Source of the DNA: Psammoneis japonica
Lineage: Eukaryota
Direction: 5' to 3'
NCBI GenBank assembly: GCA_008632985.1
Contig: QPGO01000111.1
Coordinates: forward strand, 1-64,000
Length of the DNA stretch: 64,000 bases
Shown one piece after another: positions 1 to 24,481 of the stretch (position 1 is the first letter of the stretch; each line of letters starts with the position of its first letter). The notes below the pieces were generated by a model that was given only the letters and a program-made list of their open reading frames with translations, was not told the DNA's origin and did no database searches. The position numbers and the translations under genes were made by a program.

Positions 1-3000
1 GCAGCTCAGTGACCAATTTGGGGTCCGCATCAAGTCCCACCTTGCTGACAACATCCCATTCAGCACCAAGGCTTTCATGGATGACCCAGAAGAAAACAAC
101 CAAACTGTTGATTTTTCTGGTGTTGGAGCTCATCATCAAAACAGCACAGCCGAGCGCTCCATCCAAACTGTCACCTCATGGGCACAAGCTGTGCTCCTGC
201 ATGCCATTCTAATGTGGCCTGATGCTGCCAATCTGGAGTCATGGCCTTTTGCCATGACCCATGCGACCTGCCTGTGGAACCACATCCCAAAGTCTGACAC
301 TCGTGCCGCGCCAGTTGAGATCTTCTCTAAGCAACGATTTGACACTCATGCGCATCTACAGTGCTTACAGGCATGGGGGTGCCCCACATGTGTTCTTGAT
401 CCTAAGTTACAAGACGGCAAGAAACCACCTGAGTGGGACCCCAGGAGTCACCGTGGCCAACATCTGGGCATCTCACCTGATCTTTCCACCAACATCGGCC
501 TCATTTTGAATCTGTCAACCAGCTGTGTTAGCCCTCAATGTCACATGGTCTATGACAACCACACTTCGCAACAGTTCCCAACAATGACTCCGGCGGCTTC
601 TTCCAGGATGTTCCCTTTGCCGCTGACCTTTGGGAATCCCTCCCAACCGCAGACTCGCCAGTGCACAATGCTCCGCCTGAGCCTTCCAATGCTTCTGATG
701 ACCCTTGCCATTGCTTGCCGGCCTTGCACAATGATTGGCTGACCCCCACTGAGTGCCGTCATTGCGCCACTCATCGACATGACCGCCATCAACGTCGTCT
801 CAAAAACTCCAAAACGGCCCCCACCGCCGAGCCTCCTTCAACCTCTTTCATCACAGCTCCAGAGGGTGAGCTTCCTGCTGCAACAAACAAATCATCAGCT
901 GACAATCTAGAATCTGCAACTTCAGAGGCTCCAGAGGGAGTCAAGATTGATGAGTTCAGCAATGACAGCGATGACGAATTGTCCCTCGTCAATCATCACG
1001 ACTTGCCTGAGGACCCAGACTTAGGCCCTGATGAAGCTGAGCCTCCACAACTGGCTCCAAATGCCACCACACTCCAACTCGGACTCAAAGTGGTCGCACC
1101 ATCAAGAAGCCAGATCTCTTGATTAAAGCAATGCATGCTGACATCCGCACTCCACCCAACAAGTCACCGAATGCTCATAAAAATCCAAAACGTTCCGTCA
1201 AGTTGGAAACACTGAACAAACAGTTCTTGATGGCCCTGCGTTGGGATGGCATCACCAACGCACTTTGGTCCAAAGACTTGCGCGCAATGCTCAATCTTTT
1301 CAACAAAAACACCAATCAAGTTCATGGCACACTCAAAGAAATGCATCCTCTTGCCCTCGCAGCTGATGCAAATTTGGCTGATGATCCAACTTGGGAAGAA
1401 GCAATGAGTGGCCCTGATCAAGCAGCCTGTCTGAAAGCTTGTGACATTGAAATGAACTCCCTGGTCAAAGGCAAGGATGCCTGGAAAGAAGTGGATCAAC
1501 AAGATTGGATGAATGTCCTGCCGTCCACTTGGGCCTTCAAGTGCAAACGATGCCCCGATGGGTCTATCCGAAAATGCAAAGCCCGATTCTGCATCCGCAG
1601 AGACAAGCAATTGGAAGGCGTTGACTGTTTTGATGCCTTTGCTCCAGTTGTCAATTGGACAACAGCATGGCTGATGCTCACACTTTCTCAAATTTTGGAG
1701 CTCTTGACAAAACAAGTTGATTGTGTCACCGCTTTTGTTCATGCTCCGATTGACAAGGATCCCAAATGGGGCACCATGACACCCAAAGAGCGGGAACGCT
1801 CTGGCATTTTTGTGCAAATGCCTTGCGGATGCTCCAAGCCCGGCAAAGTGCTGAAACTCAAACAAACCGTGCATGGTCTCAAACAAGGACCTTGCAATTT
1901 TTTCCTGCACCTTAAGTCAAAACTTGAAGATGCCAGATTTCAATCACAAGATGATGTTGATCCGTGTCTGTTTGTATCTGACAAAGTCATCTGCCTCACG
2001 CACATTGATGACACACTGTTCTTCTCTCTAAAACAAGAGCGCATCGACAAAGTGATCGAAAACTCAAAATTGATGGCGGTCTGGCCATCAAAGTTGAAGA
2101 TTCTGTCGCAGGTTTTTCAGGAGTCCACATTGAACGCGACACCGACAATGGCACTGTCAAGCTCACTCAAAGCGGTCCATCCAAATGTGTCGTCAAAGCC
2201 CTCAATGCAGGCCATCTGCCGAAGGCCCGAACGCCCACACTGGCTGCTCCCTTGGTCAAGGACACCAACGGAGACCCACCAAATGGAGCCCACAATCATG
2301 CCAGCATGGTTGGCATGCTTCAGCATCTCCAAGGCCATTCTAGGCCAGACATTGCCCATGCCGTTAGCTCAGCAGCCAGATTTGTTCATGGCCCTCATCG
2401 CTTGCATGAACTGGCCCTTGAACGGATCGGGTGACACCTGAAGGGCACTCTGGACGAAGGTTCAATCCTCAAGCCATCTGGGGACTTCAACATTGACGTG
2501 TTTGTTGACTCAGATTTTGCTGGACTGTGGCCGCACGAAGACAAGCATGACCCGGCTTGTGTCAAAAGCCGAACAGGATTTGTCACTTGCACCTCAAACT
2601 GTCCTGTCATTTGGTCCAGTGAGCTTGCACCCGAGATCACTCTCTCAACAATGGAAGCAGAGTGCAATGCTTTTTCCACTTGCATGAAAACTGTCCTTCC
2701 CTTTCTACGCACCGTACAAGCCATTTCTCAAGGCATTGGAGTTGGTCCAGGAACTGCCAAGACTGTCCGCACCATTGTGTGGGAGGACAATGCTGGAGCC
2801 TTGACTCTGGCTAATGTGGAACCTGGCTGAGTTACGCCTGGGTCCAAGCACTGCACAATCAAGCATCATTGGCTCCGTTCACAGCTCAAACCAAATTGAG
2901 TTGCTGTGTCCAAGATCGCAGTGGACTTGCAATGCGCTGACATTCTGACCAAAGGTCTCGTTGCTGTTAAATTCGAGGCTGTTTGAAAGTTGCTTTGCAG

Positions 3001-3459
3001 TTGGCAGCTTCTTCATTCAAGAGGGAGTGTCAACACAGCATGAACTCATGTGTGACATGTGTGTGCTATGCTTGCATGTGCGATTTCCTGCCATCGGTCT
3101 TTCTCAACTTTTCTCACAATTGCAACATCCAGTGTGACAAGACATTGGCAGCTTTGCCGATTGTGCCATCATCATTGGCCCACTTTGCCAGTGACACGCA
3201 TGCCATTCAACCTCAGTCAACTTCTCCTGACTCTCAGACGAGAGTTGTCGCAGTTTGTCGGTGTTTTTCAAAAGTCATTCTGTTTCTGTCTTGTCCGTTT
3301 GGCAGTCTGATTGGGTGTGTAATTGTGCACAAAACTGCGCAACATTTGTTTTTGTGACTGTGTGGACAGTTTTGAATGGAACATGTGTCAGAGACTTTTC
3401 GATGGAAATGTTTGCCTGCATCATTGTTTGTGAATAAAATGAACAGAGGCACATTAACA
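1..3459 (+). mobile_element. Degenerate Ty1/copia LTR retrotransposon (CoDi-like): 3' part with integrase core, RT, RNase H, PPT and 3' LTR; 5' part lies outside the window
   Basis: Integrase core (GVGAHHQNSTAERSIQTV...WPFAM...WGCP...LQDGKK...WDPRS) at ~77-560. RT (VLPSTWAFKCKR.PDG..RK.KARFC, APVVNW, HGLKQ, DPCLF, HIDD for YxDD) at ~1380-2030. RNase H (VDSDFAGLW...KSRTG...LSTMEAE...WEDNAGA...ADILTK) at ~2490-2990. The IN-RT-RH order is copia. Frameshifts and stops are present. Confidence 0.93.
3028..3459 (+). repeat. 3' LTR of the copia element
   Basis: Follows the polypurine tract AAGAGGGAG (3019-3027). Begins TGTCAA and ends TTAACA, consistent with an ancestral TGTTAA...TTAACA inverted terminus carrying one TA->CA change. 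The partner LTR is not in the window, so the 3' end is inferred. Confidence 0.7.
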
Positions 3460-3856
3460 GTTAGATAAAAACAAGTGTCATTGCTCCCAAGAGATTTCCT
3501 TGGTGATGGGAGGGAACACCGAGTCGCACGACTTGTTTTCGTGCAACTTTGGAGAAACCATCGACAGATTTAGCTGGAGGGCAGCCTCGCAAAGCCATGC
3601 GAAGTCCAATGAAGTCACGTCATTTCACCGATCACGCGACTTGCAAGCCAATTTTCAGCACTTGAAGTCATCTTCTCTCAGAACATTGGTGGCACATCTT
3701 CTGCGCAATCCTCTTGTGAGATGCTCGCACGACTTGTTCGAGAACCCTCAGCTCCAAAAAAGAAAAAAGACATCAACAGGCCATGAGATGCGGTGACACC
3801 TGCACCATGGCAGAGAAAAAACAACCTGTGGCTTTGCCAGTGCTCTTGATGCTCCA

Positions 3857-4704
3857 ATGCACCCAGACAAACTTGGTGTTGGAGATGAAAACTCTCCACC
3901 AACTGGGCATGCCGCTGGAGAGGAGGGTTGTGTTGATGGGGAGGAGATGCTTGTTGGGGTGAAGCCCTCTGCATGCAACAACATGGCTGACAGAGAACCT
4001 TTGTTGGAGGTTCCAAACATCCCAAAGGAGGCTGACATTAAGGCAACAGCTGGAAAGAGGCGCCTGCCAAACCTGACAAAAGAGGTCAACCAAGAGCTGT
4101 GTTGGGATCTCTTGACACTGATCAGCACGCGAAATGCCCACTTGCCAATGCCAGATGGTGAGAGCAATCAAAGATGGCAGGAGCTTTTTGACTTGTTCTA
4201 TGATCCTGTTAATGGACCAGCCAGAGGCTGCAGTGTGCCAGAGGCAGAAAGCAAAATTCACAATTTTCGCCAAGCAAACATCCGCAGAATTTGTGTTTTG
4301 GCCAAGAAGTGTGATGCAAAGGCGGGGAAAGGAGCTGACAAGGACGCAACAGGATGTGCGGTTCTGGCAAAGACTCTCCATGCAGCAAGGCTTTCGGCAC
4401 AGGCAGCAAAGAAAGATGAGACTCAAGAGGAGCGCGCAACAAAGCAGCAGCAAGAAAAGTGACAAACGAGAGGTGTGAGTTGGAGCTTGGTCTCACACCT
4501 CCAGCTCCATTCAATGGAGGCAAGCACTCAGCCCATGGCTGTGACGTTGAGCCAACCACAGTCACAACTGTTGGGCACCTGGATGGATCAGCAAGCGGAG
4601 ACTGTCGGTCAAGGGATTTTGTGAAGAATTTGGAGGATGCTCAGAAAGGGGCTGAATCCTTGTTTTCAAATCTGTCAAGTGGACATGGCCTTTGGCTCCC
4701 CTGA
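3857..4704 (+). pseudogene. Putative Harbinger accessory (Myb/SANT-like DNA-binding) ORF, degenerate
   Basis: ORF with LCWDLLTLISTRNAHL...NQRWQELFDLFY followed by a charged helical region. Its position convergent to the transposase fits the Harbinger two-gene layout. The family assignment is inference. Confidence 0.4.
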
Positions 4705-5039
4705 GCTGCAAGCATCCAAGAAGCGCAAGCTGGATGTGGGAACATTGCGGGAGCTGCACATGCTCAAGAGCAATGTGGAAAAAAGCTGAAAAGAGGGGAC
4801 AAGCGTCCAAGCGCTTTCTGTGGAGCCATGTCTGAGGAAGTTTTTTCGTCTTTGGGCAAAAAGCCTGCCAAATCCAATGCCACCACCAAACCATCCACAA
4901 AAAGAAGTTTCAAATGATTGGTTTCTTCCCATTGTTGGCTTGGATTTAATTGATGTTTGGCAAGTTCACATTCAGGTCAAACAGCATGTTTTCAATGGCT
5001 CATCTGACTTTGGCATGCGACCTGCAGGAAGCCATAAGA

Positions 5040-5800
5040 TCGGATGTACATCAGGTGTGAAAACAAAAGCAACACCATTGGAAAGCATTCGTTCTGTAGA
5101 TAAAAGTGTCGCCATTGATTGTTGCAAAACCACAAAACGCGCCAGGAATTTTGCACGCAACTGCGGGGTCGTTTGGATGCATGAATGCTGATTCGGTTGT
5201 GCTTGAGGTGTGAAAATAAAAGCAACACCATTGAAAAGCGCTCGCTCTGTAGATGAAATTGTTGCCATTGATTGTCCCATAATTCTGGGCACTTCTAAAG
5301 CAATGCCTGTTTGAGCAAAACGCACCAGGAATTTGGCGCGCAACTGCGGGGTCGTTTGGATGCATGAATGCTGATTCGGATCTGCCAAGGGTGTGGAAAT
5401 AAAAAAGATGCCATTAGAAAGCTGTTGCTCTGCAGGTGATCTTACTGCCATTGACTGTCCCACAATTCTGAGTGCTTCTAGAGCAACGCCTGTTTAAGCA
5501 AAACGCACCCCAGGATTTTGGCACGCAACTGCGGGGTCGTCCAGACATCTCGACGCCGATTCAGATCTGATGGGGGCACAGAAATAAAAAAGACACCATT
5601 GGAAAGCTCTTGTTCTGCAGACAATGTTGCTGCCATTGATTGTCCCACAATTCCAATTGCTTTTAAAGCAATGCCTGCTCAAGCAAAATGCACAATGATT
5701 TTGGCGCGCATCTGCGGGGTCTTTTGGACACGTCGTTGACAATTCCAATCTGCTGGAGGTGTCGAAACAAAAACGCACCTTTGGAAAGTGCTAATTCTCT
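5040..5800. repeat. Tandem array of ~183-bp units (4 full, 1 partial; first unit internally deleted)
   Basis: Units start at about 5040, 5193, 5376, 5561 and 5743 and share GCCATTGA(T/C)TG and CGCAACTGCGGGGTC. The period is a multiple of 3 and the - strand translates to a repeated 61-aa peptide. Confidence 0.9.
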
Positions 5801-6209
5801 GGACAATCAACACAAACTGTAAAATGTGTTTGTGTTGTTTGCTGCAGGTGCTCTTCGACCGTTGGTGGCAAAAGGCCGAAGGTGCCAATGCTGCCAATTT
5901 GGTTGTGATTGAAACAAGTGCAGCAATTGGCTGGCAAAAATGAAACCCTCAATTGCTCACATGCATGTGGATGCTTGCAACACAGCTTCCAATCACTGAA
6001 TGTGCAACACACCCTGAACAGATTTGCTGCCACACCACAACTCCACTCAACTGCAGTGCAAACGCATTTCATCCAAAAATTCTGTAGAACTTGGATTGGT
6101 GCAAGCGGGGCACCTTGAGCAGGTCGATGCGCCTGTCTGACACATTGCCATTTGGAAACCAGCCTTGTTGGAGCTGCAACAAGCAGTTGCCAATGCCGCT
6201 GAGTTCTTG

Positions 6210-6641
6210 TGCAGCATGCCTCGCTGCTGGACAACACGGCGAGACCGTGCACAAGCCTCTTGCACGTGGCAACGTGGCATTGTTGACACGCACCTGGGAA
6301 GCACGACCACAGGAGGGCGTGGCTCTAGGTCTCAGGCAATTCCAGAAGGATGCTGAGAGAGCATCCGTGTGAAGCACACTGGCCCATCGTCTGGCCCACG
6401 ATGGCAGCGTGATTCCACACGATGACATCACTCGTGCATGGCGCGTGATGGCTTGATTTGCACGATCCATGATGCGAATGCACGATCGATTTGATGCGAT
6501 CCAAATGCAAACGAACAGGGATTTGGCAAGATTCCCCATTCACACGATCCCATTTTCTCTACTCTAAACTGGCTCACAATTTTCACAACGACAAAGTCGC
6601 AACACATCTTCTTTTTCAGCGCCCAGCACATGCACAGGGCA
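6210..6641 (+). repeat. Gypsy 5' LTR
   Basis: Direct repeat of 10687-11118 at a constant offset of 4477. Confidence 0.93.
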
Positions 6642-9600
6642 CAGCAATGTCACTCCCGCACATTGTGCGAGGTGACGAAATCTACAGAAATGAAACTACG
6701 AAATGTTGGTGGGACCGACAAATCTTAAAATGACCATGAAGAAGCAGATTGAGCTGCTGATTCCGTTCGCATGGCCGGAGAAGAAAGAGCTGCAGCAGGG
6801 CGAGTGCCAGACGTTCAAGCTGCGCAACAACCCCACTGATCCGGACAGTCCAACGCACGAGATGGGCATTCCGCACCTTTCTGTGGCTACATGCGAGACA
6901 CTCCTGATCTTTCTGCAACAACGTGGATCACGTGCACGAAGGACAAAACATCACGACCGGGCCAGCGAAATTTGCCCTCATGCGTGACCCACTGCAGGGC
7001 GATGCTCTGACGTCATTTGACAATGCCGCTGACAAGCAGGCATCCCAAACCAACGCCACATGCGCAGCATGCATCACGAAGCTAAAGGAAAGTGTCTTCC
7101 CACATGGGGCGGTGCTGTTGCAGAAGCGTTGTCTGAGGCGCTTCATGCGCAAGCCCACAGAGGTTTCCACTCGTGACTGCATCGCGAGGGCTGTTGAAAT
7201 TAACGGCTGCATCTCTCAGTTTCCACCCGTGACGGAGGATGGAGAAGCACCGGCACCATCACCTGATGACGAACTGTGCGACATGTTTGAGTGCGGTGTG
7301 CCGAACGCATGGCAGAAGTTCATGACGCTGCAGAATTTTGACCCGTTGGCGCATGCTGTCGCCGAATTTGTGCAGTTCTGCGAGCGCACCGAGCAGGTCG
7401 AGCTTGCCGAAGGCAACCGCGACCAAAATGCCAGGGTTCTACATAAGCGGGGATGTAGAACGGACAATTCTGAGTCATTGATCATGACCCAACCGAACAC
7501 CCACGTGAGACGTGTCAAGACTGGACATTCCAGCAACGGAGGCAGCAAGCCCAACACAAAACCTCGGAATGAGGAAGATGTCAATGCTCTCATCGGATCG
7601 AAGGTCAAGGAGTTCTTTGCCAACGCTCAGAAAAAGCGCAAGGCACGCGAGGAGGAGCTTGATCACTTCCGCGACCTCAACTTGAGTGATTCCGAAGATT
7701 CGGGCGCTTGCCGACACGACACAGGCAGTTTTAACACATTGGGTGAATGCACAAATGAACAACTGAATTGCCATCGTACACGTGTTGTAGGCCAATCCCG
7801 CAAACGAGTTAAAAAGACTCATCTCACTCCAATCTTGTTCACAGCTGTGAATGCTAAACATGGCAAGGGCAAGACTCAAACCATTAAGGCACTGCTAGAT
7901 AGTGGCGCCAGCAGTGCTCTACTCGACAGTCGATACTGTAAACGTCTGCGAAGCCATTCAACGGCTGAGACAAACTGGACTACGGTAGCAGGCTCGTTCA
8001 GTACGTCTAACGACTGTACCGTTAAATTTTGGTTACCAGAATTATCCGAAACTGAAGAACTTAAACTACCGTCCACGTACACAACGGAAAGTTGGGCAAG
8101 TACGATATGATTATTGGACGTGACATTCTGGAGACACAAGGCATTGATATTGTCTTCTCTAAACAGATGATAGAGTGGCCATTAGTCAATGGAGAAGTGC
8201 CAATGAGGCACGTAGATGCTACGGTAGAAACCTCCTTCTACCTTCAAGATCCAGAAGCCTTATCTTCGGAAACCGACCGGATTTCGTATTTTAGACGCTA
8301 AGTACGCGCCGGCCTGCCTCGAGGACATAACGCGAGAGGCAATAAGACTTTCTATAGTTCACTAAAATGACCTTTTGGCACTATTGAAACGCCATGAGTC
8401 CTTATTTGATGGGACATTAGGAGAATGGAAGGGAGAACCCTACCATATCCAACTCAAGGAGGGTGTAGAACCATGCCACGCTCGTCCGTATAAAGTACCT
8501 CGTGCGTACGAAGCTACGCTACGTAAAGAAGTAGAACGCCTAGTACGTATCGGTGTTCTCAAACGCGTTAACCGATCCCAATGGGCAGCTCCATCATTTA
8601 TCATACCGAAGAAAGATTTAACGGTACGCTTTATTAATGATTTGAGAGAGCTGAATAAACGGATCAAGCGATTGCCTTGTCCGATTCCTCACATCCAAGA
8701 TATGCTACTTAAGCTCGAAGGCTTTATGTGGGCTAATCGCTGGATTTAAATATGGGCTATTATCACGTCCGATTGGATGCTGACAGCAAGAAGCTCTGCA
8801 CGCTCATCTTCCCGTGGGGCAAGTATGAGATGCAGGTATTGCCCATGGGATTATGTAATTCGCCAGACATTTTCCAAGAACGCATGTCAGGCTTATTTGA
8901 AGATCTATCGTTCGTTCGAACGTACTTAGATGACCTTCTCGTCGTGACGAAAGGCACCTATGAAGATCACCTCAACAAACTTGAAGAAGTTTTATTGAGG
9001 GTCCAGAAAGCAGGACTAAAAGTTAACGCAACTAAATCTCACTTCTGTCAAACCCAATTAGAACACTTGGGTTGTCTGGTCAACAGAGACGGAATACGAC
9101 CAATACCTAATAAAGTCGACGCCATTAAGCGAATCGCGACCCCAACCAATAAACGCGACCTTCGCTCATTTATTGGTATGGTGAACTACTACCGCGACAC
9201 GTGGATAAGACGTTCTGAAGTCTTGGCTCCGCTAACACGACTCGTAAGCGAGACTGTTAAGTGGGAGTGGACGTCCGTTGAAGACGAGGCGTTCGAAACC
9301 GTTAAACGGGTGACATCGGATGATGTTTTATCATCACATCCTGATTTTAACAAACCCTTTGAGATGCATGCCGATGCCTCTAAATGTCAATTGGGAGCAG
9401 TTATATCCCAAGATAATAAACCTGTCGCCTTTCCATCGAGTCGTCCTTTGCATGAAGCTTTTAATGCAGACGCGCAAGATGAGATGTCTCTGCCCATTGG
9501 CTTCAAGCGCATTCAAAAAGCACAACAAAAGGACAAGCGCCTGCTCTCACGAGCCAAGGACTCGTCCGACTGCTCCATTCGTGCGTGTCGTGGGGGAGGG

Positions 9601-10686
9601 TCATCACGACAGTTGATCTGTCACAAGGACAAAATCGTGGCACCACAGTCATTGCAGGTTCCGCCAACTGAATGGCGCCACGAGACACTGTGTCATCCAG
9701 GTGAGACACGTGCGGAAATGTCTGTTGCCCAGCACTTCTGTTGGCCTGGTGTGAGGTCTACGGTGCATTCTACGTGCGTCAAGTGCGATCGATGCCAGAA
9801 GACAAAACGCCGAACGCAGCATCATGGGAAGCTGCCAGAAAAGGTCGCCGAGACAATTCCATGGGAGACTCTGTGCATGGACATGATGGGGCCATGTAAA
9901 ATTCAAAGACGCGGAAAGGACACTTTGCAATTGTGGGCAGTCACAATGATTGACCCAGCAACCGGGTGGTTCGAGATTGAAGAAGTGTCTGCGAAATGCG
10001 CAGACGTCGCAGCAAACGTCGTGGAACAAACGTGGCCATGCAGACATCCGTGGCCAACCCAGGTGGTTTATGACCGTGGGACAGAATTTGTGGCAGAATT
10101 CACATTTAGCCAGATGATTAAAAATGACTGTGGGATTTTGAAGAAACCCACAAGTGAGCGAAATCCACAGGCGAATGCCACAGTGGAACGTGCACACCAG
10201 ACACTTGGCAACATGGCACATTCCTTTTCAGCGCAGGACATGGAACTGGACGAAGATGACCCATGGAGTGGCATCCTCTCCGCAGTGGCCTTCGCCATTA
10301 GAGCCACGGTGCATGCGACCACGCGTGCAAGTCCCACGCAATTGGTCTTCGGACGCGATGCGGTTTTGTCTGTTGCCCATCGTGCCAAGTGGAAGCACAT
10401 GGAAACCAGAAAACAGAAGCTCATCCAATTAAATGACAAGCGTGAAAATCAGAAATGCAAGGAGCATCAATGTGCCGCAGGGCAATTGGCACTTGTCAAA
10501 CAGGAACAATCCTCTAAACGCGGTTCTGACAGCTGTGCAGGACCCGCCAGAGTTGTCCGTGTGCATGACAATGGCACATTGCGTGTCCAGAACGGAGTGC
10601 TGACAGATGCGCACAATCTACGGCAGATTGCACCCTGTCACCAGCAAGACATCCTGTCACTTGACGGCCCTGATCATGGGGGAGTG

Positions 10687-11118
10687 TGCAGCATGCCTCG
10701 CTGCTGGACAACACGGTGAGACCGCGCATGAGCCTCTTGCATGTGGCAACGCAGCATTGTCAACACGCACCTGGGAAGCACGGCCACAGGAGGGCGTGGC
10801 TCCAGGTCTTGGGCAATTCCAGAAGGATGCTGAGAGAGCATCCGTGTGAAGCACACTGGCCCGTCGTCTGGCCCACGATGGTGGCGTGATTCCACACGAT
10901 GACATCACTCATGCATGGCGCGTGATGGCTTGATTCGCACGATCCACAATGCGAACGCACGATCGATTTGATGCGATCCAAATGCGAACGAATGGGGATT
11001 TGGCAAGATTCCCCATTCACATGATCCCATTTTCTCTGCTCTAAACTAGCTCATAATTTTCACAACGACAAAGTCGCAACACATCTTCTTTTTCAGCACC
11101 CAGTGCATGCGTGGGGCA
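10687..11118 (+). repeat. Gypsy 3' LTR
   Basis: Follows the PPT; direct repeat of 6210-6641. Confidence 0.93.
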
Positions 11119-12400
11119 CTTGAAGCCTTGAATCAGCTCTGAGCAGTCAAAGGGGAAAGCGACATTTATTTCAGGTGTTTTCATGTGACTCATTGGCACA
11201 CACAAGATCGCTGCTCACCTTCCAGCTGACACTGGCCCCACACAATTGAGACTCCATTTGGCAAGGAGATGCTGAGGACCTTTGTGCCAAGAAATTTTTT
11301 TATGCCACGTGTGCACTGACCGCTGCACGTCACAGGCGTTTGGCTTTCTAGGTGCATCGACCCAATCTCCAATGGGACCTGTTCCTGGGGTCTCCATCTC
11401 AAAGATGGAGCAGTCCATGAATCCAAGCATGTTGAATGCACCATTTGCAAACCACAAACCTGGCAACAAATGCTGCACTTGATTCAATGGATTTGTCCAA
11501 TGTGAAGGTGTGGCCAATTTTTGTTCAATTGCAGCCACAAATCGTGGAAAGTCATCCACCCATCGCTCAAGACTGTTTCTGTCCAAGAGGTGCCCAAACC
11601 AGCGCTCAGTGCGCCAAAGGAACCAAGGGTGTCCACGCGACCACCGCTTGGTGTTGCCACCAAAGAAACCTTCACACAATCTGACGTTGTCGAGTCCAGT
11701 CACAATCTTTGTCAAAGAAAACAAAAAGAGCTCTTCACCTCCAAACACACACACTTTGTTGCCAGCTGCTGGAACTCTCATGGCTTGTGGCAGACCAAAA
11801 AGCACACACAGGCGGTGCACCTGCTCATGGTCAAACTGTGTGCAAATCCTGAGCCACGCATTGGAGCAGTTGTCAATTAGCCTGTGTCTAACTCGCTCAA
11901 AGCTTGGATCCATTTCAAGCTCTTCTTGGAATGGAATGTCAGCAAGGGCTGCATCTTGCCTCGCCCAATGATCTGCAAGATGACGACACGCAACCAAAGC
12001 TGTCAACGAGCAAGCCGCACCAAAATTGAAGGGTTGTTCATCGTCCAATTCTTCTCCCAAATCCAAATCTGCAAGGTCATGCTCATGATTGATCAGAAGA
12101 AGAAAAATGGCGAGAAATGCCGTCCAATGAATGACTCCTTTCAAGGATGTGGACCAAAGCAAATGGCAAGCACGCAACAAAGATTGACCACCGGTGGGAA
12201 GCGCATGATTTCTGCACTGGCAAGGAGTGTGCCTCATTGCAGCACGGCGGCGATGTCCATTGTGGCGGTGAGGAACCCTTGGCATTTCCACTGCAGCTGT
12301 TTTGTTCTTTCTCCATTTTGCACTTGCTGGTTTTGCAAACGGGAAGCCGCTTCGAACAACCCACATGACATGGTTGCTGCTCTTGTCGCATGACTTCGGA

Positions 12401-12978
12401 GCTTGCGGCTTCACTTGAAGAGATGATGACGTGCACCCGCGGTTGGTGGTGTCTGCTGGGCGCAGACGAAATCACACCATTGGCTGCGAAGCAAACTAGA
12501 CAGCTTCCATTGTCTTGTTGCACCTCTGTGTCAATTCCCGTCTCTTGACAATTGTCAATTGCGGCCATTGATCAAACTGCATGACCTTTTTAAGACTCTG
12601 TGCGGGGGCCAACATCCACAGCAACGACTTCCGGGAACCCACCAAGAAGTCTGACGCAAGCATCAAAGAGCGCCGGGTTCCGACAAAATGTCCTCGATTG
12701 CAAACCGGCAGTTTGGGTGTCGTGTTTTTGGCAATGTTAATTGACTCAAGTGACTTGTCAATTCCAAAACTGCAAGGTAAGTGAGTGGTTTCCTCTGCTG
12801 CTTTTGTTTCTGGTGCAATGGCTGGTTGAACCCGGTCAACCGGCAGTCTACAATCACAACCTGGAATGACCACAATTGTTTCCTCTTGTTTGTCAAATGT
12901 GGTTCAAGTATGTTTAAGGGCATTAAATTGCTTCGCCGAACATGACAGGTCGAGCCCTGGACGTCGAACAAGAACACC
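12401..12978 (-). pseudogene. Decayed partial duplicate of the methyltransferase-like gene at 14729-15592, including its 3' flank
   Basis: Colinear with ~14641-15290, e.g. CCTCTGCTGCTTTTGTTTCTGGTGCAATGGCT and GACAAAATGTCCTCGATTGCAAAC. Has frameshifts and a deletion that removes the FLEIG SAM-binding segment. Confidence 0.9.
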
Positions 12979-13303
12979 ATGACTGCATGATGATTCGAAT
13001 CAAATTTCGGAAACGCAAGTCGAAACTCTGAACCGCGACCCACCCGCGACCTTACGAATCAAGCACGAATCAGCCGCGTACAGCAGTCGTACTTACAGTA
13101 GAACGTGCTTTCGCAGTACGCACGGTACATTTTCTGCATCTGATTGACATCCACGACTCACTTCCTGTCACAAAACCAAACACGCAACAGTACTAACGAA
13201 AATGAAAGACTGCGACGGGAATTAGCACATTTCCATATCCAAGAATAGAAAGAAAAGCCTTATAATACAACACGTTACTATAGCAACCAATTAAAGCAGC
13301 ATC

Positions 13304-14281
13304 ATGTCCCCAGATTCCAACAATCGATTCATATCTTGGTGCGCCTTGGCCGTCTCTTCTTCGGTATGTTTTCATGTTTCGCCGTTGGCGCGCGGATCAT
13401 GCCTTTTTGATTTAGTGTCACTGCAAACGTTGTGTCTCAATCTTTTGCAACATCAATTGGTTTGTCAATTCTGAATCATTTTGTGCTTCCTTGTTTCATT
13501 AAAGGTCGCCTTGATTGCACACACGACAACCGACTACGACTATGTCGATTCCGACATGGAGGGTTACCGGTACGGTTCGTCTCACAAGTGGGTCACCTCC
13601 GTGTGCGCCATTTCCTTGGGTATATCCTTATGTACCATTATGATACATTTTGTTCCCTCGTTCAACTTTGTCGGAGGACTCGGAGAACGCGTTGTGGCGT
13701 TATTTCTTACAATTTGTTGGGTTACCGGGCTTCCCGTGATTTTGAACCCCGACAACGATATTGCCGCGAACGAATTCGGGACACGCAACGACGATCTCTA
13801 CTTTTCGTCATGGGCTGCCTTTAGTACAGCTTTCTACATTGCCATAAGTCTGGTGGCAAAGGCTGTGGTGGGTGTGTCGACGGTTCCGAGAAAGACCTGG
13901 CTGTGGGTGACGCTCTTTGTGGCGTCCGTGGTTGTCATGGTGGCCAGCTCAAGAGACTTTAAATGTTTTTGTGACGGTTTCAATTCCAACGAGTGTGAGC
14001 GGATTGTATTTGGCGTTAGCCTTGGAGCAGTTGGAACCGTGTTTGCCTTGGCCATGTCTCTGTTGACATTGAAGGACAGAATAGACCTAATTGGCGAGTC
14101 TATCATGTCGGTTTTGCTCCTCGTCATGTACAGCTTTGGTGTCGGTTTCATAACATTTGAGCCGCTTGGCAATTTGTATTTTGCGACATGGGGCGGCTTT
14201 ATTGTGGCCATGCTTTTAACAGCTGGTTGCGTCGAGCAGCGCTTTTTTTCAGACGATGATAGTGAGAGTACGGGTACGTGA
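13304..14281 (+). CDS. Multi-pass membrane protein, two exons (intron 13364-13504)
   Basis: ATG at 13304 (MSPDSNNRFISWCALAVSSS), in-frame GTATGT...AAAG intron, about 8 hydrophobic helices with an internally duplicated LYFSSW/LYFATW motif. Confidence 0.8.
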
Positions 14282-14728
14282 CTGTTTCGCGATTTTGATG
14301 CTTTTCTCCAAGTGTATTGTACGCCTTTCCTCACTACGTTTTTTCGTGCTATTGAACGATTGATTCTTAGCACACCTGAAAACAGACCCAGAATCGCAGC
14401 GAGTGGAGGATATACCCAAGGCCTAAGACAACGGAGACTACTGTATAATATTAACACATATGGGTTGGTGGTTTATCCCTCCCTACTAGAGGTACCGGTA
14501 GATTCACAAGTAGCTTTCGTGTCCCTCTACCGGTAGACACGCTACATGTTCACCACTCTAACCTACATGAAGTACGAGTTCATACATCAGTAGCTTTCGT
14601 GTCCTTCATTTATTTAACCCACTGAAGAATAAAAGTACACAGTTACGGCTTGATCAAGCAAGGAGTGGCGGCTTAGTGCTGTCTGCTGGACACGGTAGAA
14701 ATCACATTGGCTCCGCCGCACACTCGCG

Positions 14729-15592
14729 TCAATTGTCCAGTTGTACCTCCGCGTACAATTCCCGACTCTTGACAATGATCAATCGCGGTCGCTGATCAAA
14801 CTGCATAATATTTTCGAGACTTCTTGCTACGGGAAGCAAGTCTCGATTACCACCAATGTCCATGGCAACGACTTCCGGGAACCTACCAAGGAGTCTAACG
14901 CAAGTATCAAAGAGCTTGTCGGGTTCAGACAAAATGTCCTCGATTGCAAACTCGCAGTTTGGATATCGAGTCTTGGCAATATCAATAGACTCGAGCGACT
15001 TGTCAATCCCTAAACAGCAAGGTTTGTTATTTACAGCATCCTCCTCTGCTGCTTTTGTTTCTGGTGCAATGGCTCGTTGAACTCGGTCAACCAGCGGTCC
15101 GTAGTCACAACCAATCTCTAAAAAGCATTCACCTACACACGCATGAACGACAGCAGCCCTTCTATACTGTGGGGTTTCTGGAATGACCAACACAATTCCC
15201 TCTGGTTTTGTCAAGTGTGGTTCAAGTACGGGTATTAAATTGCGGCGTCGAACACGATAGGTCGAGCCCCTTGGATATCGAACAAGGACTCGACGAGTCT
15301 CGTTATTCATATCGCTTCCTTCTTGTTCGTCGTCATCCGAAACGACTCGTGCTCTCATGAATAGCTCACTTCTCGAGTATTGTGCAGTATCATTTGTCTT
15401 AGCATGCCTTTTTGCTTGACCCTTGCTCTTCAATACCCAGCAGAGTGTTTCTGGAGCAAGTCGAGGCGATGGGAAAATTGTGCTCTCCAACTTGTCTTCG
15501 AGAATATAGCGATACGACTGTGGATGCACTGATGACGCATGGCGAGGCTGAGGCAAGTCAATAGAAGACGCACGGTCGTCGCTCTTGCTCAT
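14729..15592 (-). CDS. Class I SAM-dependent methyltransferase-like protein with a small N-terminal beta domain
   Basis: 287-aa ORF with motif I FLEIGCDYG, post-I LGIDKS, DIGGNR and PRLIIVKS. Confidence 0.75.
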   Translation of the reverse strand: MSKSDDRASSIDLPQPRHASSVHPQSYRYILEDKLESTIFPSPRLAPETLCWVLKSKGQAKRHAKTNDTAQYSRSELFMRARVVSDDDEQEGSDMNNETRRVLVRYPRGSTYRVRRRNLIPVLEPHLTKPEGIVLVIPETPQYRRAAVVHACVGECFLEIGCDYGPLVDRVQRAIAPETKAAEEDAVNNKPCCLGIDKSLESIDIAKTRYPNCEFAIEDILSEPDKLFDTCVRLLGRFPEVVAMDIGGNRDLLPVARSLENIMQFDQRPRLIIVKSRELYAEVQLDN

Positions 15593-15723: not shown

Positions 15724-16101
15724 TCACGGCGATTTCTCCTCCTCGCCGTGTAGATAGGCTTGCCACATCCAGTCGCCGTCATTTTCTTCCCCATCATCAA
15801 TGACTCCTACAACGTCTTGGTTTACATGTAGCCACGGCCCATTGACTAGGTCCGTTCTAAGGCCTTTGATTGTACCTTCTTCTTGTGTTTCAACAATCAT
15901 GAACTTTGTTTGGCTCTCATGGTCCCGAAAGGCAGGCGTCACCAGGTCGGGAGAACATTCCACAACCATGACTGGATCGTACTCGACGACCTCTTGTCCT
16001 TCCTGGACCAAGAATTCAACAATGCGAACTTTGGTGTGTGTCGGCGACAAGCGAGGAATTGTCATGCGTTTCGACAGAAAAAGAGCCGTCGTTCGGAACA
16101 T
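15724..16101 (-). CDS. Stand-alone biotinyl/lipoyl-domain-like protein with a probable mitochondrial presequence
   Basis: MTIPRLSPTHTKVRIVEFLVQEGQEV...ETQEEGTI resembles the PDH E2 lipoyl domain (MPxLSPT...EG). Arg-rich N-terminus. Confidence 0.65.
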   Translation of the reverse strand: MFRTTALFLSKRMTIPRLSPTHTKVRIVEFLVQEGQEVVEYDPVMVVECSPDLVTPAFRDHESQTKFMIVETQEEGTIKGLRTDLVNGPWLHVNQDVVGVIDDGEENDGDWMWQAYLHGEEEKSP

Positions 16102-16472
16102 GATGAATCAAAATCAATCTGACAATGTTGTCCAGCAGAAGTGGAAGCAATAAACTGTGCAAGTGTCGATAAAGAAGCAAAGATGGCGACTGTATGCCGG
16201 TATTTGTCCGCCATGGTGTTGACTGAGTCACATTTTTTGTTTTTTCAGGATGCCGTCTGGCATTCTGTCCCATTCTCAAATTTGATGCGGAACAGGCTTT
16301 TTTGCTTTTGCCACGTCACACACACAAAATAAACAAAAAACCCAAAATCGTCCAGAAAATGCGAAAAATCGAAAGAAACAAGCACTTACACAACTCCACA
16401 ACAAACCAACGCAACATCACACTTTCAACTTGTTCTGCAATACAACAACAACAGCACCTTCTTATACATACA

Positions 16473-17165
16473 ATGGGTGGTTCGTTTAGCAGTAGTAGCA
16501 GCTCTTCTAAATCCTCGTCAAAACAGCCACAACGACGCAATGTCACGATAAGTCAGGTAGACCGAGCCGTGCTGGATTTAAAGAATACCCGTGATGCGCT
16601 TACAAAATACCGTCGCAAGTTGGAACTGGATGAGGCCAAAATTGTACAGCGTGCCAAGGAGGCCAAGAACAAGGGCGATACCAAGACGGCTCTCAATTTG
16701 TTGCGTTTGAAAAAGTTCAAGCATCAACAAATGGATCAAGTAAATAATCAGCTCTTGACGGTACTGCAAATGGTGGAGACGATTGAAGGCAAACAGAACG
16801 AGGCGCAAGTCTTGGATGCCATTCAAAACGGAAAGGACTCTCTTGCCAAATTGCACGAGGAAAATTCGCTTGAAAAGGTGTTGGATCTTATGGATACTGT
16901 ACAAGAACAAGCCGAGTTGGAACAAGAGATTTCAAACGTATTGGCGGGTGTGCCCGAGTTGGACAGCGCGGCAGAAGAGGAAGTATTGGCAGAACTAGAA
17001 GCGTTGGAAAAGTCCATGAAGGCAGAAACAACACCCATGGAGCTTCCAAACGTGCCAACGACCGAATTACCAACTCCTCTTCCCAATGTACCTACAACAG
17101 AGTTGCCAGTTCCGCAAAAAGCCGAGTCAGCTTCAAAATCAGGGAGAGTTGCTGTTCCGTCGTAA
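16473..17165 (+). CDS. VPS20: ESCRT-III Snf7-family subunit Vps20/CHMP6
   Basis: N-myristoylation-type start MGGSFS, VDRAVLDLKNTRD, a coiled-coil Snf7 core, and C-terminal LPNVP (MIM2-like) motifs. Confidence 0.88.
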   Translation: MGGSFSSSSSSSKSSSKQPQRRNVTISQVDRAVLDLKNTRDALTKYRRKLELDEAKIVQRAKEAKNKGDTKTALNLLRLKKFKHQQMDQVNNQLLTVLQMVETIEGKQNEAQVLDAIQNGKDSLAKLHEENSLEKVLDLMDTVQEQAELEQEISNVLAGVPELDSAAEEEVLAELEALEKSMKAETTPMELPNVPTTELPTPLPNVPTTELPVPQKAESASKSGRVAVPS

Positions 17166-17475
17166 GTTGGTCGTCCCCGAACTATTTGTACAAACACATG
17201 ATAATATGTTGAACTCATATTGTTGTTACTATAGGTGAGCTTGTTGAATCACTACTACAAATACTATGCTATTAGCATGTTCCCCATAACTTGTCCCCAA
17301 ACTGTGAAACATGTCTACCAGCCTTCCGAAAGAGACGCACGTCCAGTAACTACCATCAACTTGTCAACAAAATCTGCTACTGCACGTACATTCCCCTAAT
17401 ACATATATACTTTCCCCTAATCATGCCCCACCCTACTGTGACTTGCTCCCTCCGGAATCGCATGTCAGATGCACC

Positions 17476-20400
17476 CTAACCCCAATGCATCGACGATGTC
17501 AAACGGGCGCTTTCCAAACGGGCCTTGCGCTGAATCTCTGTCTCAATAGCTTCTCTCAATGTAACGACCCATACGTTCTTTTCTTCCAGAGAAGCAGCCA
17601 CGGCCAAGAAGGACTTGCGTGGATGATAAACCTGAAACGCCTTTCGAAGGTACTTTTTGTTTCCACCCGATGGAAAGTAATCTGTAATCTTCATGAGATA
17701 CAACGGAAACTCCTCGTGGACCTTGTATTCTCCATTGGATGCCTTCTTGGCATAAATCAACACGTCCGAAAACAAAAAGAACCGGTACGTCGTGGTACGA
17801 CCAGATCGATTGGACCGCTTCATCAGATCACCCTCTCGAACAATCGAGCGAGACGGATCGTTCAGCAAGAATCCACCGTTGCGAATCTGTCGGACTGTGC
17901 GGTGCATCTCCTTGGCAATGCCAGAGTCAATCTTGAGAGTGGCGTGTAACTCATTAAAGATTGAGTTCACCTGTACCAAGGCATTCAGCTTGGCTTTCTC
18001 GTCTTGCGGATTCGAGCAGTCCATCTCCAGATCAATGTACCAATCCTCAAGTTTGTAAGCATTGAAGCTATGAGCACCATGCCACTTGTCGCGCTTCTCG
18101 GCAAACATCTTGAATCGAGCCAACTGAGTAACGAATGCGGAACGCTCCATTGTCATGTCTAAACAAATCGTGGAGCAAATGGCGTACTTCAACACATCTA
18201 GACAATACTCCATTCCCTGCGAATCCAAATGCGCCTTGTCAAGAGTCGAATTGATAAGTCCGTGGAACAGGTACCATGTAGACGACCAGGCTTTCTTGAC
18301 GAGATTCCTAGTCACTTGCTCGGCATCGCCCTCGGTGTCATCGCAATAGGCTTCAACCGTATAAAACGGGTTCTCGTGTACAGACAGTCCCCGAAGGAGC
18401 TCTTCGGCTGGCTTGACACTCTGTTTGATCGATTCAAGCTGTGCGTCCAGGTCCGTCATCACTGCTTCATCGTCCTTGTTGACCGGCGACACTGGAAAGG
18501 TTCCGCAGGTCATGTCCTCAATGATCGCGATAGGTTCAGCCTCGACTGAATCATAGATTGCGGAGAGATAGTCCTGAGTGAGTTCCTCGGCGTTGTCAAC
18601 CCCTCTGAGATTGTTCAAGAACTCAACTTTCGTCATTTTCTTGCGTTGCACCCGACTTGCCGTCGGAAGTTGGACCTTGTGCAAGTCTGTGTTCAGCATA
18701 ATGATAGCAAAAGCCAAGAGGAAAACCGTATCTTGATCTTGAAAGGGGCAACGCTGAAAGTCACCGGCGTTGTCCTCCCAATAGCATTGGGCAAAGGTTG
18801 TCATGACACGATCAATCTTTTGCGCTTCTCCCGGCAAACGAAAACCGCAGTTTGTCAAGAAGTAGCGAAGCCTTGTTTTTCGATATTCACAAGAAAAGAT
18901 GACGGATGAGACATGCATGAAAGGAAGCAGAGAAATCTACGACACATGGCACAAAGAGAAGTACACTTACCCTTCTTCAATATTCATCCCAACAAAAGAA
19001 ATCGCACGAACGTAGTTGAAGCGAATCAAGTTTTTGTATTCAACACCCGCACCATCGATTCCTCCGTCTCCCAAGTAGTTCCCCAACACTTCAGAGTCGA
19101 TCTTTGAGCTATGGATTCTCAGAAAAGAAGCAATATCTCTTGGTGACGGCGTGAGAAAATTGGATGCAACGAGATAGTCAATGGCTTTGTTTAAGCTCTT
19201 CTCCTCGATCATTTTAAATGCGACACCAAGGGTCTCTTCCGAGTTTGGAATGTCCTCTGCATCATTGTTGCTCTCTGTAAGATTTGTCTCGTCTTCTCCT
19301 TTCATCATTTTGATTGGCGCAGTTGAAGGCGCCGCAACATTTCGACTTGGTTCAGGGGTCTGTGGCTGGTTCTGTGGCTGTCGAACCGGCGACATGGACC
19401 TCCCACGTGGAGGCTTCAAGGCCTTCTTTCGTTCAGGGGCGATCGATTTTTGCCAATAGTCTACCATTTCACTACCCCTTTCAGGGCTTTGAGATCTTGA
19501 CCGAGGAGATGTAACGTCTCTATGGAGGATGGGTACTTGCAGCCTAGGAACTCCATTTTTCCGAAATCTACTTGCCGGCGAAGGTATATCGAACTCATCA
19601 ACAGACGCGCTAGGCTCGCTCTCATCCAGCGCTGTACATTCATTCTCGGGATCTTGCCTTTCCTCTTCTAGCGATGTCCAAGTCGTAACCAAATGCCGAA
19701 ATTTTGGTCCAGAAGCAGTGGCTGCACTCTCGGCGAGGGACTGTATTAGAGGACGGGAATCAATCGTGAGAACGCTGAGTGAAAACATAGATACAGTGCG
19801 AAATGCCAGTTATACAAACCTTAGCAATCTTTGTAAGAGCCTCAAAGGACTTATGTTGCAAAACACGTCCTCCCTCTGGAATCGATGTCCGTACCGCTCC
19901 CTTTTCTGACGCTGAGGAAGATCTTGGGGAAGTCGGCGGACCAGCCCCAGTGGTTTGGCTCAAATGGATTCTCTCTCCAATGATGTCTCCCGATTTTTCG
20001 GCGATCGTGCAAAGTGCGGCACAAAGCTCCTGGCAGATTTTCCACTGCGGTCCTGGCATGATTCTTGACGTGGCACTGCTAGTCCCTCCCACGGAAAAGT
20101 CTAGGTCAAAGTTGAGGAAAATCTCAAGCATATCATCCTTCCCGGCGGAGAACCAGATAGTCAACTGTTCAAGAATCTCAACCTGATGTGAGAGCAGTTT
20201 CTGCGATTGATGAGTGCCGGCAGATCCGTTACTCTGTGATGAAACCGACGGCTCTAAATGTTTGCCTGACGACAGAAGATGAGGACCCAACTGGAGGACC
20301 CTCATGATAAACTGCTCAATTAAGACACCTAGCTCCATCTTCATAGAACGTCGATAGTAAGGCGTGCACCAAAGAGCAGATATCATTCGGATCATCCTTC

Positions 20401-23400: not shown

Positions 23401-24481
23401 TGTCGATATGCTTGACATTTGTTCGGATGGGGGTCGGCGGTAGATTATCCACGTCGCGAAAAGGCTGTTCGTCTTGGTCGATATTTTCCGCATGGATCAA
23501 TGTAGGGTCATCGGATTTAATCTCATCAACTATTACCACGTCAGAAGATCCGGATAATGTGTGTTGAACTTCGAGATCAGTTGGCTTCATACCATTCTTC
23601 TTTCGACCGAGTCTTCTTGCAAACCAACGCTTTTTGCTTATCCGTGGCTTCGAGGTCGGCGTCGAAGCAGCGTCGGCAGATGTCTTGGTATTTATCGTAG
23701 ATTCAACATTGATAATCCCGCTCTCAGGAATAGCTTCGACGTTTTCCTTGACGCTACTAAGGGATTCTTGTTCTTCTGGAATTACACCCTCGGTAAGTGA
23801 GACCGAGTCCAGGGTCCGGGAGCACAACGTGGCAAGCGCGACATTTCCCATTTTCATCTCTGAATGAGACTGACTCTTTTTATAGTTCTCCATCCAAAGG
23901 CCTTTTGATTCATTCTCTATTCCGGAACTTGAAAGAGTAGAAGTAGCCTCGAGATTGTATGCATCAATGCTCGGGTCAGCTCCGCCAGCATGCGACCCGT
24001 TCTCAGACCCCTTGAAGGACGATGCTACTGACGTGCTATCATCAAAATGCTTAAAGGCGTGCTGTTGACGCGAAGTATGAAGATGAACATGAGGGATTTT
24101 CTCGCTGTATGGGCGTGAGTAGGAGCTTCCACCTGTGGACCTTGTACCAAGGGACGCCTTGGATGATCCAAACCTTGGTGAGATAATTCGTTTTCGTTTC
24201 GGCGCAGTGATCGACGGCACCGGAGGAAATTCGTCATTGGCAGGCGGAGAGTCATTGAGAGTGACTTGTTCTAAAATAGCCTTGACGACATCACATGCCT
24301 CATCTATGCCGCTGGCTTTCGATACCGTGGAATCTTCTTTTGCTTTTGAAGCCTCCGCCCCAGTGACGTTCTGGTCTTTTGATGGAATTGACGACAGGCT
24401 GCTCATCTGACTTGCATCATCGAGTTCCTCGTTCACCTCGACATCATTTGCGTACGGCAAAAGTGCCGTTGGCAACGACAT
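17476..24481 (-). CDS. Large Sec7 ArfGEF with MABP domain, helical (DCB/HUS-like) region, Sec7 and C-terminal PH domain; introns 19741-19819 and 18872-18970
   Basis: Sec7 motifs FRLPGEAQKIDR and AFAIIMLNTDLH. PH domain (VREGDLMK...RFFLFSDVLIY...EEKNVWVVTL). MABP-like repeats (PPRGYYRI, VPPGFCVV, ANLNHG, IYLCYRR, PITGI). Both GT-AG introns preserve the frame. Confidence 0.9.

Follow-up and report, generated by a model that had tools for sequence, protein, structure and literature searches.

In fungi, repeat-induced point mutation (RIP) makes C:G to T:A transitions, mainly from CpA to TpA. It is a premeiotic process that depends on RID/DNMT4 or DIM-2, and a linked duplication is usually mutated in both of its members. 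One Neurospora branch, involving DIM-2, DIM-5, and HP1, is triggered by repeats, works through chromatin, and also mutates single-copy linker DNA lying between direct repeats (10.1101/344036); RIP is further reported to spill over into unique sequence nearby (PMC6963459), and duplicates are defined at over 65% over 100 bp (PMC7296669). Our searches of the open-access literature turned up A:T to G:C hypermutation aimed at chromosomal DNA in one preprint only, on the chlorarachniophyte Bigelowiella natans, and no diatom report. That preprint describes TpA-restricted hypermutation of integrated nucleocytoplasmic large DNA virus (NCLDV) and virophage DNA, which is regional, leaves both products, has a silent single-copy viral insert as its main target, and proceeds in mutation-accumulation lines at ~1000 times background; an ADAT2-like deaminase is proposed without proof, host-type domains are listed among the TpA-poor sequences, and the main text contains neither 'diatom' nor 'pseudogene' (Mettrop et al., 10.64898/2026.01.13.699255). 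Diatom transposons are CG-methylated islands, methylated by DNMT5a (PMC9998398). Here we describe a locus of the diatom Psammoneis japonica, a window of 64,000 nt (the whole stretch of DNA analyzed) on contig QPGO01000111.1, in which a pseudogene at 12.4 kb, Uw, has had TpA dinucleotides rewritten to TpG or CpA, and its intact parent gene, P, has kept them. Sister copies of Uw (U237 and U113) and copies of the neighboring sequence (P237 and V237) lie on two other contigs, C237 and C113; positions without a prefix are those of the window.

The duplicated unit consists of two facing genes, a membrane gene and a methyltransferase-fold gene (Table 1). Window segment 12440-14962 is repeated in order on C237 (34139-34617, 39345-39434, 42135-42295, and 42851-44933), with three insertions between the pieces, and an inverted copy of the unit lies at C113:127020-129314. 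Uw is 95.6% identical to U237 (C237:34139-34617), 92.3% to U113 (C113:127165-127650), and only 80.1% to P, so the initial annotation, which took the gene 2.3 kb away as the direct parent, does not hold on this point. It did recognize the copy as old; deletions of 20 bp and 66 bp are common to Uw, U237, and U113, and the pseudogene therefore predates its present places.

Divergence between Uw and P is concentrated at TpA. In a pairwise alignment of 14643-15296 with 12403-12982 (453/555 columns identical), just two of the 21 aligned parental TpA are unchanged in Uw, with six reading TG, six CA, and one CG, and six otherwise changed. Transitions at A/T bases affect 16/43 positions inside TpA and 15/240 elsewhere (Fisher p=3.3e-7), in agreement with the initial proposal that TpA sites change more than other A/T sites; all seven of the parent-to-copy changes quoted in its support are present. 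P has also kept its TpA, as had been claimed, since its coding sequence has an observed/expected (o/e) ratio for TA of 0.61 (0.43-0.69 in five other window genes) and its ratio of codon junctions reading NNT before A to those reading NNC before A, 15:17, is ordinary (119:184 in other genes, p=0.45). TA o/e is 0.06-0.33 per kb in the first 13 kb of the window, except at 8001-10000, and ~0.3-0.85 in genic DNA.

The sister copies give the direction of change. Twelve of the 18 TA in U237 are TG (8) or CA (4) in Uw, and the reverse holds for 1/7 (binomial p=0.003); 68 of the 83 in the comparison of U237 with U113 are TG (37) or CA (31) in U113, the reverse being 3/16. U237 and Uw differ at 12/36 TA bases, 5/43 CG bases, and 4/397 other bases, and since their split 33% of TA bases have changed vs 1.0% of other bases, figures that describe the footprint only. 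Among the 18 U237 TA sites, 12 are hit in both Uw and U113, three are kept in both, and three are hit in U113 alone. At the doubly hit sites the product is alike in Uw and U113 at six and opposite at six, which shows that the two copies were hit independently; where the three copies read TA, TG, and CA, the simplest source is TA, via separate events. The outgroup agrees: in an alignment of 27 of the 107 P homologues, Tyr106 (15276) and Tyr112 (15258) are Tyr in 27/27, and Tyr164 (15102) and Tyr210 (14964) are Tyr or Phe in 27/27, so that TA is ancestral at those invariant codons, as the initial annotation had supposed. With sister copies and outgroup Tyr codons both supporting its direction from TpA to TpG or CpA in the copy, we regard the loss of TA in copies, in that direction, as virtually certain. 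In the U113 membrane gene most Tyr codons are now Cys and the intron is also hit, so the process acts on DNA and reaches host genes; the earlier suggestion that it extends beyond transposon sequence is borne out by the rewriting of Uw and U113. CpG decays alongside, with 5/22 CG lost from U237 to Uw (reverse 0/17) and 36/94 from U237 to U113 (reverse 10/67).

These comparisons also limit what Uw can tell about its present surroundings. Three of the seven quoted changes, CTAA to CTGA (14896), GATAGG to GACAGG, and GATATC to GACGTC, are common to all sisters. Because the changes at 14896, 15258, and 15276 are found in all three U copies, they predate the present position and are uninformative about the present transposon block.

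Near-identical duplicates support position, rather than pairing with a partner, as what decides whether a sequence is hit, judging from the sequences compared. P and its truncated duplicate P237 have 1/25 and 1/25 TA changed, the spacer duplicates 0/7 and 1/8, and the window membrane gene and V237 show background TA change only (10/62 and 5/58), despite the stop in V237. Both members are thus spared, or hits are one-sided, and a front can lie inside homologous DNA: that of U113 falls between C113:129037 and 129121, in exon 1 (ATG at 129098), and beyond it 6/6 aligned TA are kept at C113:129121-129282, with homology continuing to 129314. These two features together argue that position decides. 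An erased insertion interrupts U237, and another adjoins the end of P237, yet both copies escaped; unconverted TA extend ~250 bp (U237) and ~550 bp (P237) into the adjoining insertions, which puts the fronts at about C237:34860 and 45490. Two C113 copies of a small repeat at C237:42309-42821, in which 23-24 TA are intact, have 19 and 17 of these converted. Looked at as a linked-duplication test of RIP, the pairs, separated by 75-190 kb on the assumption that C237 and the window are contiguous, show one-sided hits or none. A further argument, that the P/Uw pair at 80% lies below the RIP threshold, was dropped, as PMC7296669 does not support a threshold of ~80% over 400 bp.

The initial annotation had held that only the copy beside the transposon block was hit. 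This is correct for the P/Uw pair alone; U113 is hit harder (68/83 TA), and two broken copies abutting transposons are spared. Nearness to such a block is therefore no predictor, as U237 and P237 abut erased insertions and escaped. Its broader conclusion, that the chromatin domain matters rather than pairing, is right in placing position over partner (12/18 against 1/7) but too clean as a dichotomy, the DIM-2 branch of RIP being both repeat-triggered and chromatin-mediated.

A gypsy long terminal repeat (LTR) retrotransposon within the erased block provides many more copies of one sequence. We took 28 of 39 other long matches (L053-L080; 40 of 185 candidates were scored, with the TA-rich core as query) and scored 350 sites that read TA in the two least-mutated copies across the 27 other copies, the window included; the resulting cells, copy by site, are not all independent. 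TA conversion per bin is 65-88% outside ruler positions 1500-2500 and 16-45% inside. The core is kept in 23/27 mutated copies (at most 8 of ~32 sites converted) between flanks typically 75-90% converted, and the exceptions are L066, L077, L078, and L080, with the spared part of L066 shifted. The spared core surrounds the start of the protease and reverse transcriptase (RT) region and has copy-specific fronts on either side. The core is present in no fewer copies than the rest of the element, so copy number does not decide. CpG decay follows a similar profile: it falls to 0.04-0.08 within ruler 1500-3000, from 0.11-0.22 beyond these limits. At 9 sites, TG in one LTR of an insertion stands against CA in the other. 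The TA-to-CG double change, one of those quoted in the initial annotation, occupies 9 cells vs 2512 TG/CA cells (182 sites, 27 copies) and is no hallmark of the process.

One alternative shares its last step with our preferred explanation but places the trigger in pairing. Close repeats would be sensed by homology and made heterochromatic, and a DIM-2-like mutator would spread 1-2 kb until it meets an active gene. Gypsy copies are indeed converted inward from both LTRs with copy-specific fronts, Uw sits immediately next to one end of a multi-copy element and 1.3-1.8 kb away from an LTR, and both the mutation of single-copy linker by the Neurospora DIM-2/DIM-5/HP1 pathway (10.1101/344036) and the leakage of RIP into unique DNA (PMC6963459) are precedents. 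However, the position of the core is constant although insertions in L062, L064, and L068, which may be later, alter its distance from the LTR; outward spread from LTRs varies from none to >1.5 kb; the linker between the tandem duplicates 2.3 kb apart, which is the membrane gene, is unmutated; and the B. natans target is single-copy. The idea that copies with one LTR escape, which would have spoken for LTR pairing, also failed. The apparently missing LTRs of L054, L059, L074, and L079 are merely displaced by nested insertions (by 7-10 kb in L054 and L079, and likewise in two hit copies), and L066, whose second LTR was not found within 20 kb, is nonetheless hit. We think a pairing trigger unlikely.

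The mutation spectrum in the gypsy family is narrow. Products fall on both strands (TG 3126, CA 2853), and processive same-strand runs were sought and rejected, with 2962 same-product neighbors vs 2991 +/- 30 in 500 permutations. Per-strand rates in hit zones are 0.36-0.44 for TA to TG, and 0.008-0.044, 0.014-0.069, and 0.004-0.009 for A in AA, CA, and GA contexts, the range of 0.004-0.069 in these other contexts being partly CpG decay in the reference copy; CA to TA occurs at 0.010-0.033. The 3' base also matters, with A-to-G rates of 0.48-0.62 in TAC, 0.33-0.61 in TAT, 0.21-0.40 in TAG, and 0.17-0.29 in TAA. TA o/e is under 0.2 in 120 of 244 1-kb bins, and among TA surviving in those 120 depleted kb, TTAA is richest (0.51 of the genic level) and ATAT poorest (0.012). 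TA and CG o/e correlate across the 244 bins (Spearman 0.79), and TA conversion is far above CpG decay (0.36 vs 0.066 per strand). CpG decay is a companion process and not the cause of TA loss. Blocks at C113:107001-108000 and 115001-120000 have TA o/e of 0.02-0.14 with CG o/e of 0.83-0.99; such TpA-erased, CG-intact blocks are perhaps young patches.

The same spectrum bears on a second alternative, in which targeting is as we propose and the chemistry differs: oxidized T in RTA (R, purine) is read as C, or an error-prone enzyme such as DNA polymerase eta (Pol eta) mis-inserts G opposite T in tracts resynthesized during repair of deaminated 5-methylcytosine (5mC). TA-to-TG and TA-to-CA changes are one event seen from two strands, with which damage to T agrees just as well; TA is lost in the same places where CpG decays; and A-to-G change outside TA is somewhat raised in hit zones (for AA, 0.017, compared with 0.003 where the core is spared). 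Pol eta errors occur at WA (W, A or T), AA as well as TA, include many transversions, and lie in same-strand tracts. In the gypsy hit zones, in contrast, TA exceeds AA 10- to 47-fold, transversions are <0.01, adjacent hits show no strand runs, and TA conversion outstrips CpG decay as given above. We rate a different chemistry, too, as an improbable account.

We propose that segmental duplications and transposon insertions broke up and dispersed an old tandem array of the two-gene unit, and that its copies were exposed to a DNA-level mutator that converts A to G in 5'-TA-3' on either strand, gives TG or CA, acts best before a pyrimidine, and rewrites 65-90% of sites within sharply bounded patches. 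The local DNA state, and not origin or partner, would set the hit: silent CG-methylated copies (Uw and U113) would be rewritten, and promoters and transcribed DNA spared, even in broken copies abutting an erased transposon (the U237 tail, the P237 tail, and V237). Adenine would be deaminated to inosine by a deaminase recruited to silent chromatin, with the change fixed by replication. We consider this model of a mutator of silent domains bounded by promoters to be, as a whole, a reasonably good bet. It is likely that the patches carry methylation and are silent and that a front halts at transcribed DNA or open promoters; they would correspond to the silent islands of CG methylation that diatom transposons form (PMC9998398). 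The chances are about even that the chemistry is adenine deamination by a TadA/ADAT-type deaminase, which is suggested by the resemblance of the TAC preference to UACG. A PF00383 search of the assembly gave nine matches (ADAT2-like, at C26:119851; TadA-like, at C38:7368; deoxycytidine monophosphate [dCMP], and RibD-like) of housekeeping type, which are no evidence either way. A two-domain dCMP-deaminase-like gene is present twice, at C41:505477-506590 and C317:55748-56795, with proteins identical in the part compared. The fullest version, a chromatin-guided adenine base editor in diatoms, TadA/ADAT-type and partner-free, recognizing a mark of silent chromatin, working near saturation at TAY (Y, pyrimidine) on both strands of transposons and dead host genes alike, and stopped within ~100 bp by promoters or transcription, we advance tentatively.

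The runs listed include none recorded as RNA; one, designated X2, labeled 'DNA?' and available as contigs only, bears on which copies are expressed. One X2 contig has the GT..AG intron at 13364-13504 spliced out, and the gypsy element is almost uncovered; from these two features together we infer that X2 is RNA-derived. Among the pieces listed, an X2 contig on 12440-12711 has 10 differing letters and a C237 flank, exactly as in U237; one on 14501-14832 has nine differing letters, exactly as in P237; on the membrane gene, 17/17 listed letters are those of the C237 paralogue V237, spliced; and two contigs match the single-copy part of P with zero differences. X2 thus holds four spared copies, three of them broken. 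The absence of Uw and U113 letters from X2 contigs carries no weight as proof of silence.

Sparing might instead reflect survivorship, with patches falling anywhere, selection purging those in useful genes, and spared copies only looking protected. Both window fronts and the U237 region do adjoin intact genes, namely the membrane gene and the gene divergent from the membrane gene of U237, which by its motif is probably DTW-type. But the spared DNA includes broken copies, the U237 tail with its frameshifts, the truncated P237, and V237 with its stop, as well as the promoter of the dead U113, transposon edges, and gypsy cores, in which base-by-base selection is not expected; we hold this account to be very improbable. 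ADAR-like RNA editing fixed by reverse transcription, or a RIP-like gain of TpA in P and U237, for which it might be said that 7/17 U237 TA are TG or CA in P (reverse 3/17, a background exchange between old paralogues), is already refuted, provided the alignments are right, by the retained and itself hit intron of U113, by products on both strands and TG/CA swaps between the LTRs of one insertion, and by the TA/TG/CA trios and invariant Tyr codons that fix TA as ancestral.

Several observations weigh against a promoter-bounded mutator of silent domains. The basis for calling patches silent is CpG decay together with one RNA-like run; X2 is a single run, read as RNA from its spliced contigs alone, and although the window membrane gene and its promoter are spared, the X2 letters there are those of the C237 paralogue. 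Fourteen of the 120 TA-depleted bins show little CpG loss, so the two marks are separable. Every hit sequence examined has some homologue, so that targeting free of homology is only a possibility on this DNA. In the gypsy family, sampling with a core query favors spared cores, the model does not account for an open transposon core, and L054 (C196) and L079 (C265) are nearly unhit along most of their length for no reason that we found. As to chemistry, the footprint is double-stranded, and a changed A in TAY is indistinguishable from a changed T in RTA.

Further erased blocks lie at 30900-32300, 51200-54800, and 62400-64000. Block 31001-32000, with TA o/e of 0.04 and strong G and A skew, sits among ordinary genes, and no repeat of it was found in 148 kb of C113 or in C237 as examined; it may be a test case for single-copy targeting. 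A 12-kb segmental duplication (C237:79758-91822 / C113:135863-148000, 84-86% identical) is erased in both copies.

The features of the locus are collected in Table 1.

Table 1. Coordinates and state of the main features (window positions unless prefixed)
Feature	Position	Strand	Remarks
Window part of TpA-/CpG-depleted block: copia remnant, other repeats, gypsy, Uw	1..12960	.	TA o/e 0.06-0.33 per kb outside gypsy core
Gypsy LTR retrotransposon	6208..11119	+	LTRs 6208-6642 and 10685-11119, 92% identical; ends erased, core ~7700-9450 spared
Right part of multi-copy decayed element, end abuts Uw	11119..12441	-	Left part ~5040-6209
Uw, pseudogene of 3' two thirds of methyltransferase-fold gene, TpA-erased	12440..13003	-	TA o/e 0.23 over 12440-12960
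Right-hand front of erased block	12911..13053	.	Conversion relative to U237 ends at 12911; TA dense and kept from 13053 on; ATG 13304 lies 250-390 bp downstream
CpG-rich spacer/promoter piece, spared	13004..13164	.	Duplicate at C237:42135-42295, 98.8%
Intact gene for a 294-aa hydrophobic, probable membrane protein, TpA kept	13304..14426	+	Introns 13364-13504 and 14274-14370
3' end and downstream DNA of P, spared	14501..14962	-	Duplicate C237:44472-44933, 96.5% (truncated copy P237)
P, intact 287-aa diatom gene, putative class I S-adenosylmethionine (SAM)-dependent methyltransferase fold, TpA kept	14732..15592	-	
V237, membrane-gene paralogue with premature stop, TpA kept	C237:42851-44165		5' part 96-98%, 3' part 75-92% identical to window gene

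The left-hand neighbor of the window is most likely C237, since C237:96490-103048 matches window 1-6558 at 99.8% (4 substitutions, 11 gap columns); U237 would then lie ~75 kb left of Uw, with U113 114 kb to the right, and the depleted block runs ~34 kb further left on C237. C237 and C113 appear to belong to one chromosome copy. We rejected C237 as an allelic haplotype of the window on the contig-end overlap, 99.8% over 6.56 kb, and on the lack of a second copy right of 14962, where the 5' part of P and the genes beyond it are single-copy. Copy-specific X1 contigs have depths of 62.8 and 68.5 vs 60.1 for unique sequence, a hint only, as depth is no copy number. The four overlap substitutions are two TA/CA and two CG/CA or CG/TG, three of the four in a tandem repeat, and reflect either assembly noise or hits so recent that they distinguish chromosome copies.

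P has 107 homologues in a homologue search, the named ones including diatoms. Its structure model (predicted local distance difference test [pLDDT] score 85) has class I SAM-dependent methyltransferases as top Foldseek matches, weak but consistent (best E 8e-4); Pfam and PDB sequence searches gave the protein no name, and 2/28 homologues have weak methyltransferase-family matches. A methyltransferase fold is thus weakly but consistently predicted. The spliced reading of the window membrane gene has a single stop, at its end, and intron 1 is removed in the X2 contig of its C237 paralogue; the hydrophobic product is probably a membrane protein of a diatom family, its Atlas look-alikes being unnamed diatom clusters. 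The uneven identity of V237 along its length suggests a chimeric history, and a further membrane-gene paralogue lies at C237:18311-19420. A small inverted-repeat element (C237:38850-39352) is inserted at a TTAA of U237, and its left target-site copy reads TTGA, having been mutated post-insertion. The decayed element abutting Uw, which has no Pfam match, we presume from its motifs to be a Harbinger-like DNA transposon; an X1 contig carries the empty-site joint across it (6205 to 11119, gypsy absent). In the copia remnant (556-2830), presumably conserved Tyr are now His or Cys, and the RT motif reads HIDD; a change of Tyr to His or Cys agrees with TAY to CAY/TGY. Ordinary neighbors at 15724-18936 and 19760-24490 include Snf7 and a gene for a Sec7/PH guanine exchange factor whose 5' open reading frame (ORF) is long, and a small biotin-lipoyl-like ORF among them scores below the cut-off.

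This locus is a natural experiment, with one host sequence at three sites, of which two were hit independently and one was spared, and with fronts resolved to ~100 bp. Pairing or chromatin as the deciding factor becomes directly testable at Uw, U237, and U113. LTR-divergence dates and pseudogene ages will be inflated in such genomes.

Of the systems outlined at the outset, RIP is alike in making dinucleotide-specific two-strand transitions, near saturation, in repeats and pseudogenes, with spill-over and a link to cytosine methylation. Unlike RIP, which makes TpA from CpA/TpG, the process described here removes TpA, spares near-identical host duplicates or hits them one-sidedly, and leaves no strand runs. 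With its reversed direction and spared partners, the process cannot be classed as RIP. The assembly has 27 DNA_methylase matches, counted without division into classes. Diatom CG methylation and 5mC decay are matched by the change of CpG to TpG/CpA, which is found in the erased blocks and reduced in the spared gypsy core, but such decay is unable to eliminate TpA and is here several-fold weaker than TA conversion. TadA/ADAT2 and the editors derived from them are alike, by motif alone, in the A-to-G outcome and in preferring 5' T/U and 3' C; we know of no natural enzyme of this type shown to edit diatom chromosomes. The derived editors prefer UACG (PMC8052359). The TAY preference is a fingerprint for the enzyme, and algae may possess a DNA adenine editor of natural origin.

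Closest is the B. natans hypermutation, with which our locus shares TpA-restricted transitions, TpG and CpA products, and discrete regions of TpA depletion with CpA/TpG excess. The host here is a diatom, a stramenopile, and not a chlorarachniophyte, and the process hits retrotransposons, other repeats, and copies of two host genes rather than viral or foreign DNA, with about half of the 244 kb examined depleted. Other distinctions are near saturation, fronts sharp to ~100 bp, CpG decay in the same places, and a preference for a 3' pyrimidine, and the B. natans rate was measured in accumulation lines, whereas here the footprint alone is seen. Judged on sequence, the process works like a variant of the B. 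natans type, new in host lineage, targets, TAY context, and CpG link; if the same system works in Bigelowiella, it would be an old and overlooked genome defense of the SAR (stramenopile, alveolate, and rhizarian) lineage, a mirror image of RIP.

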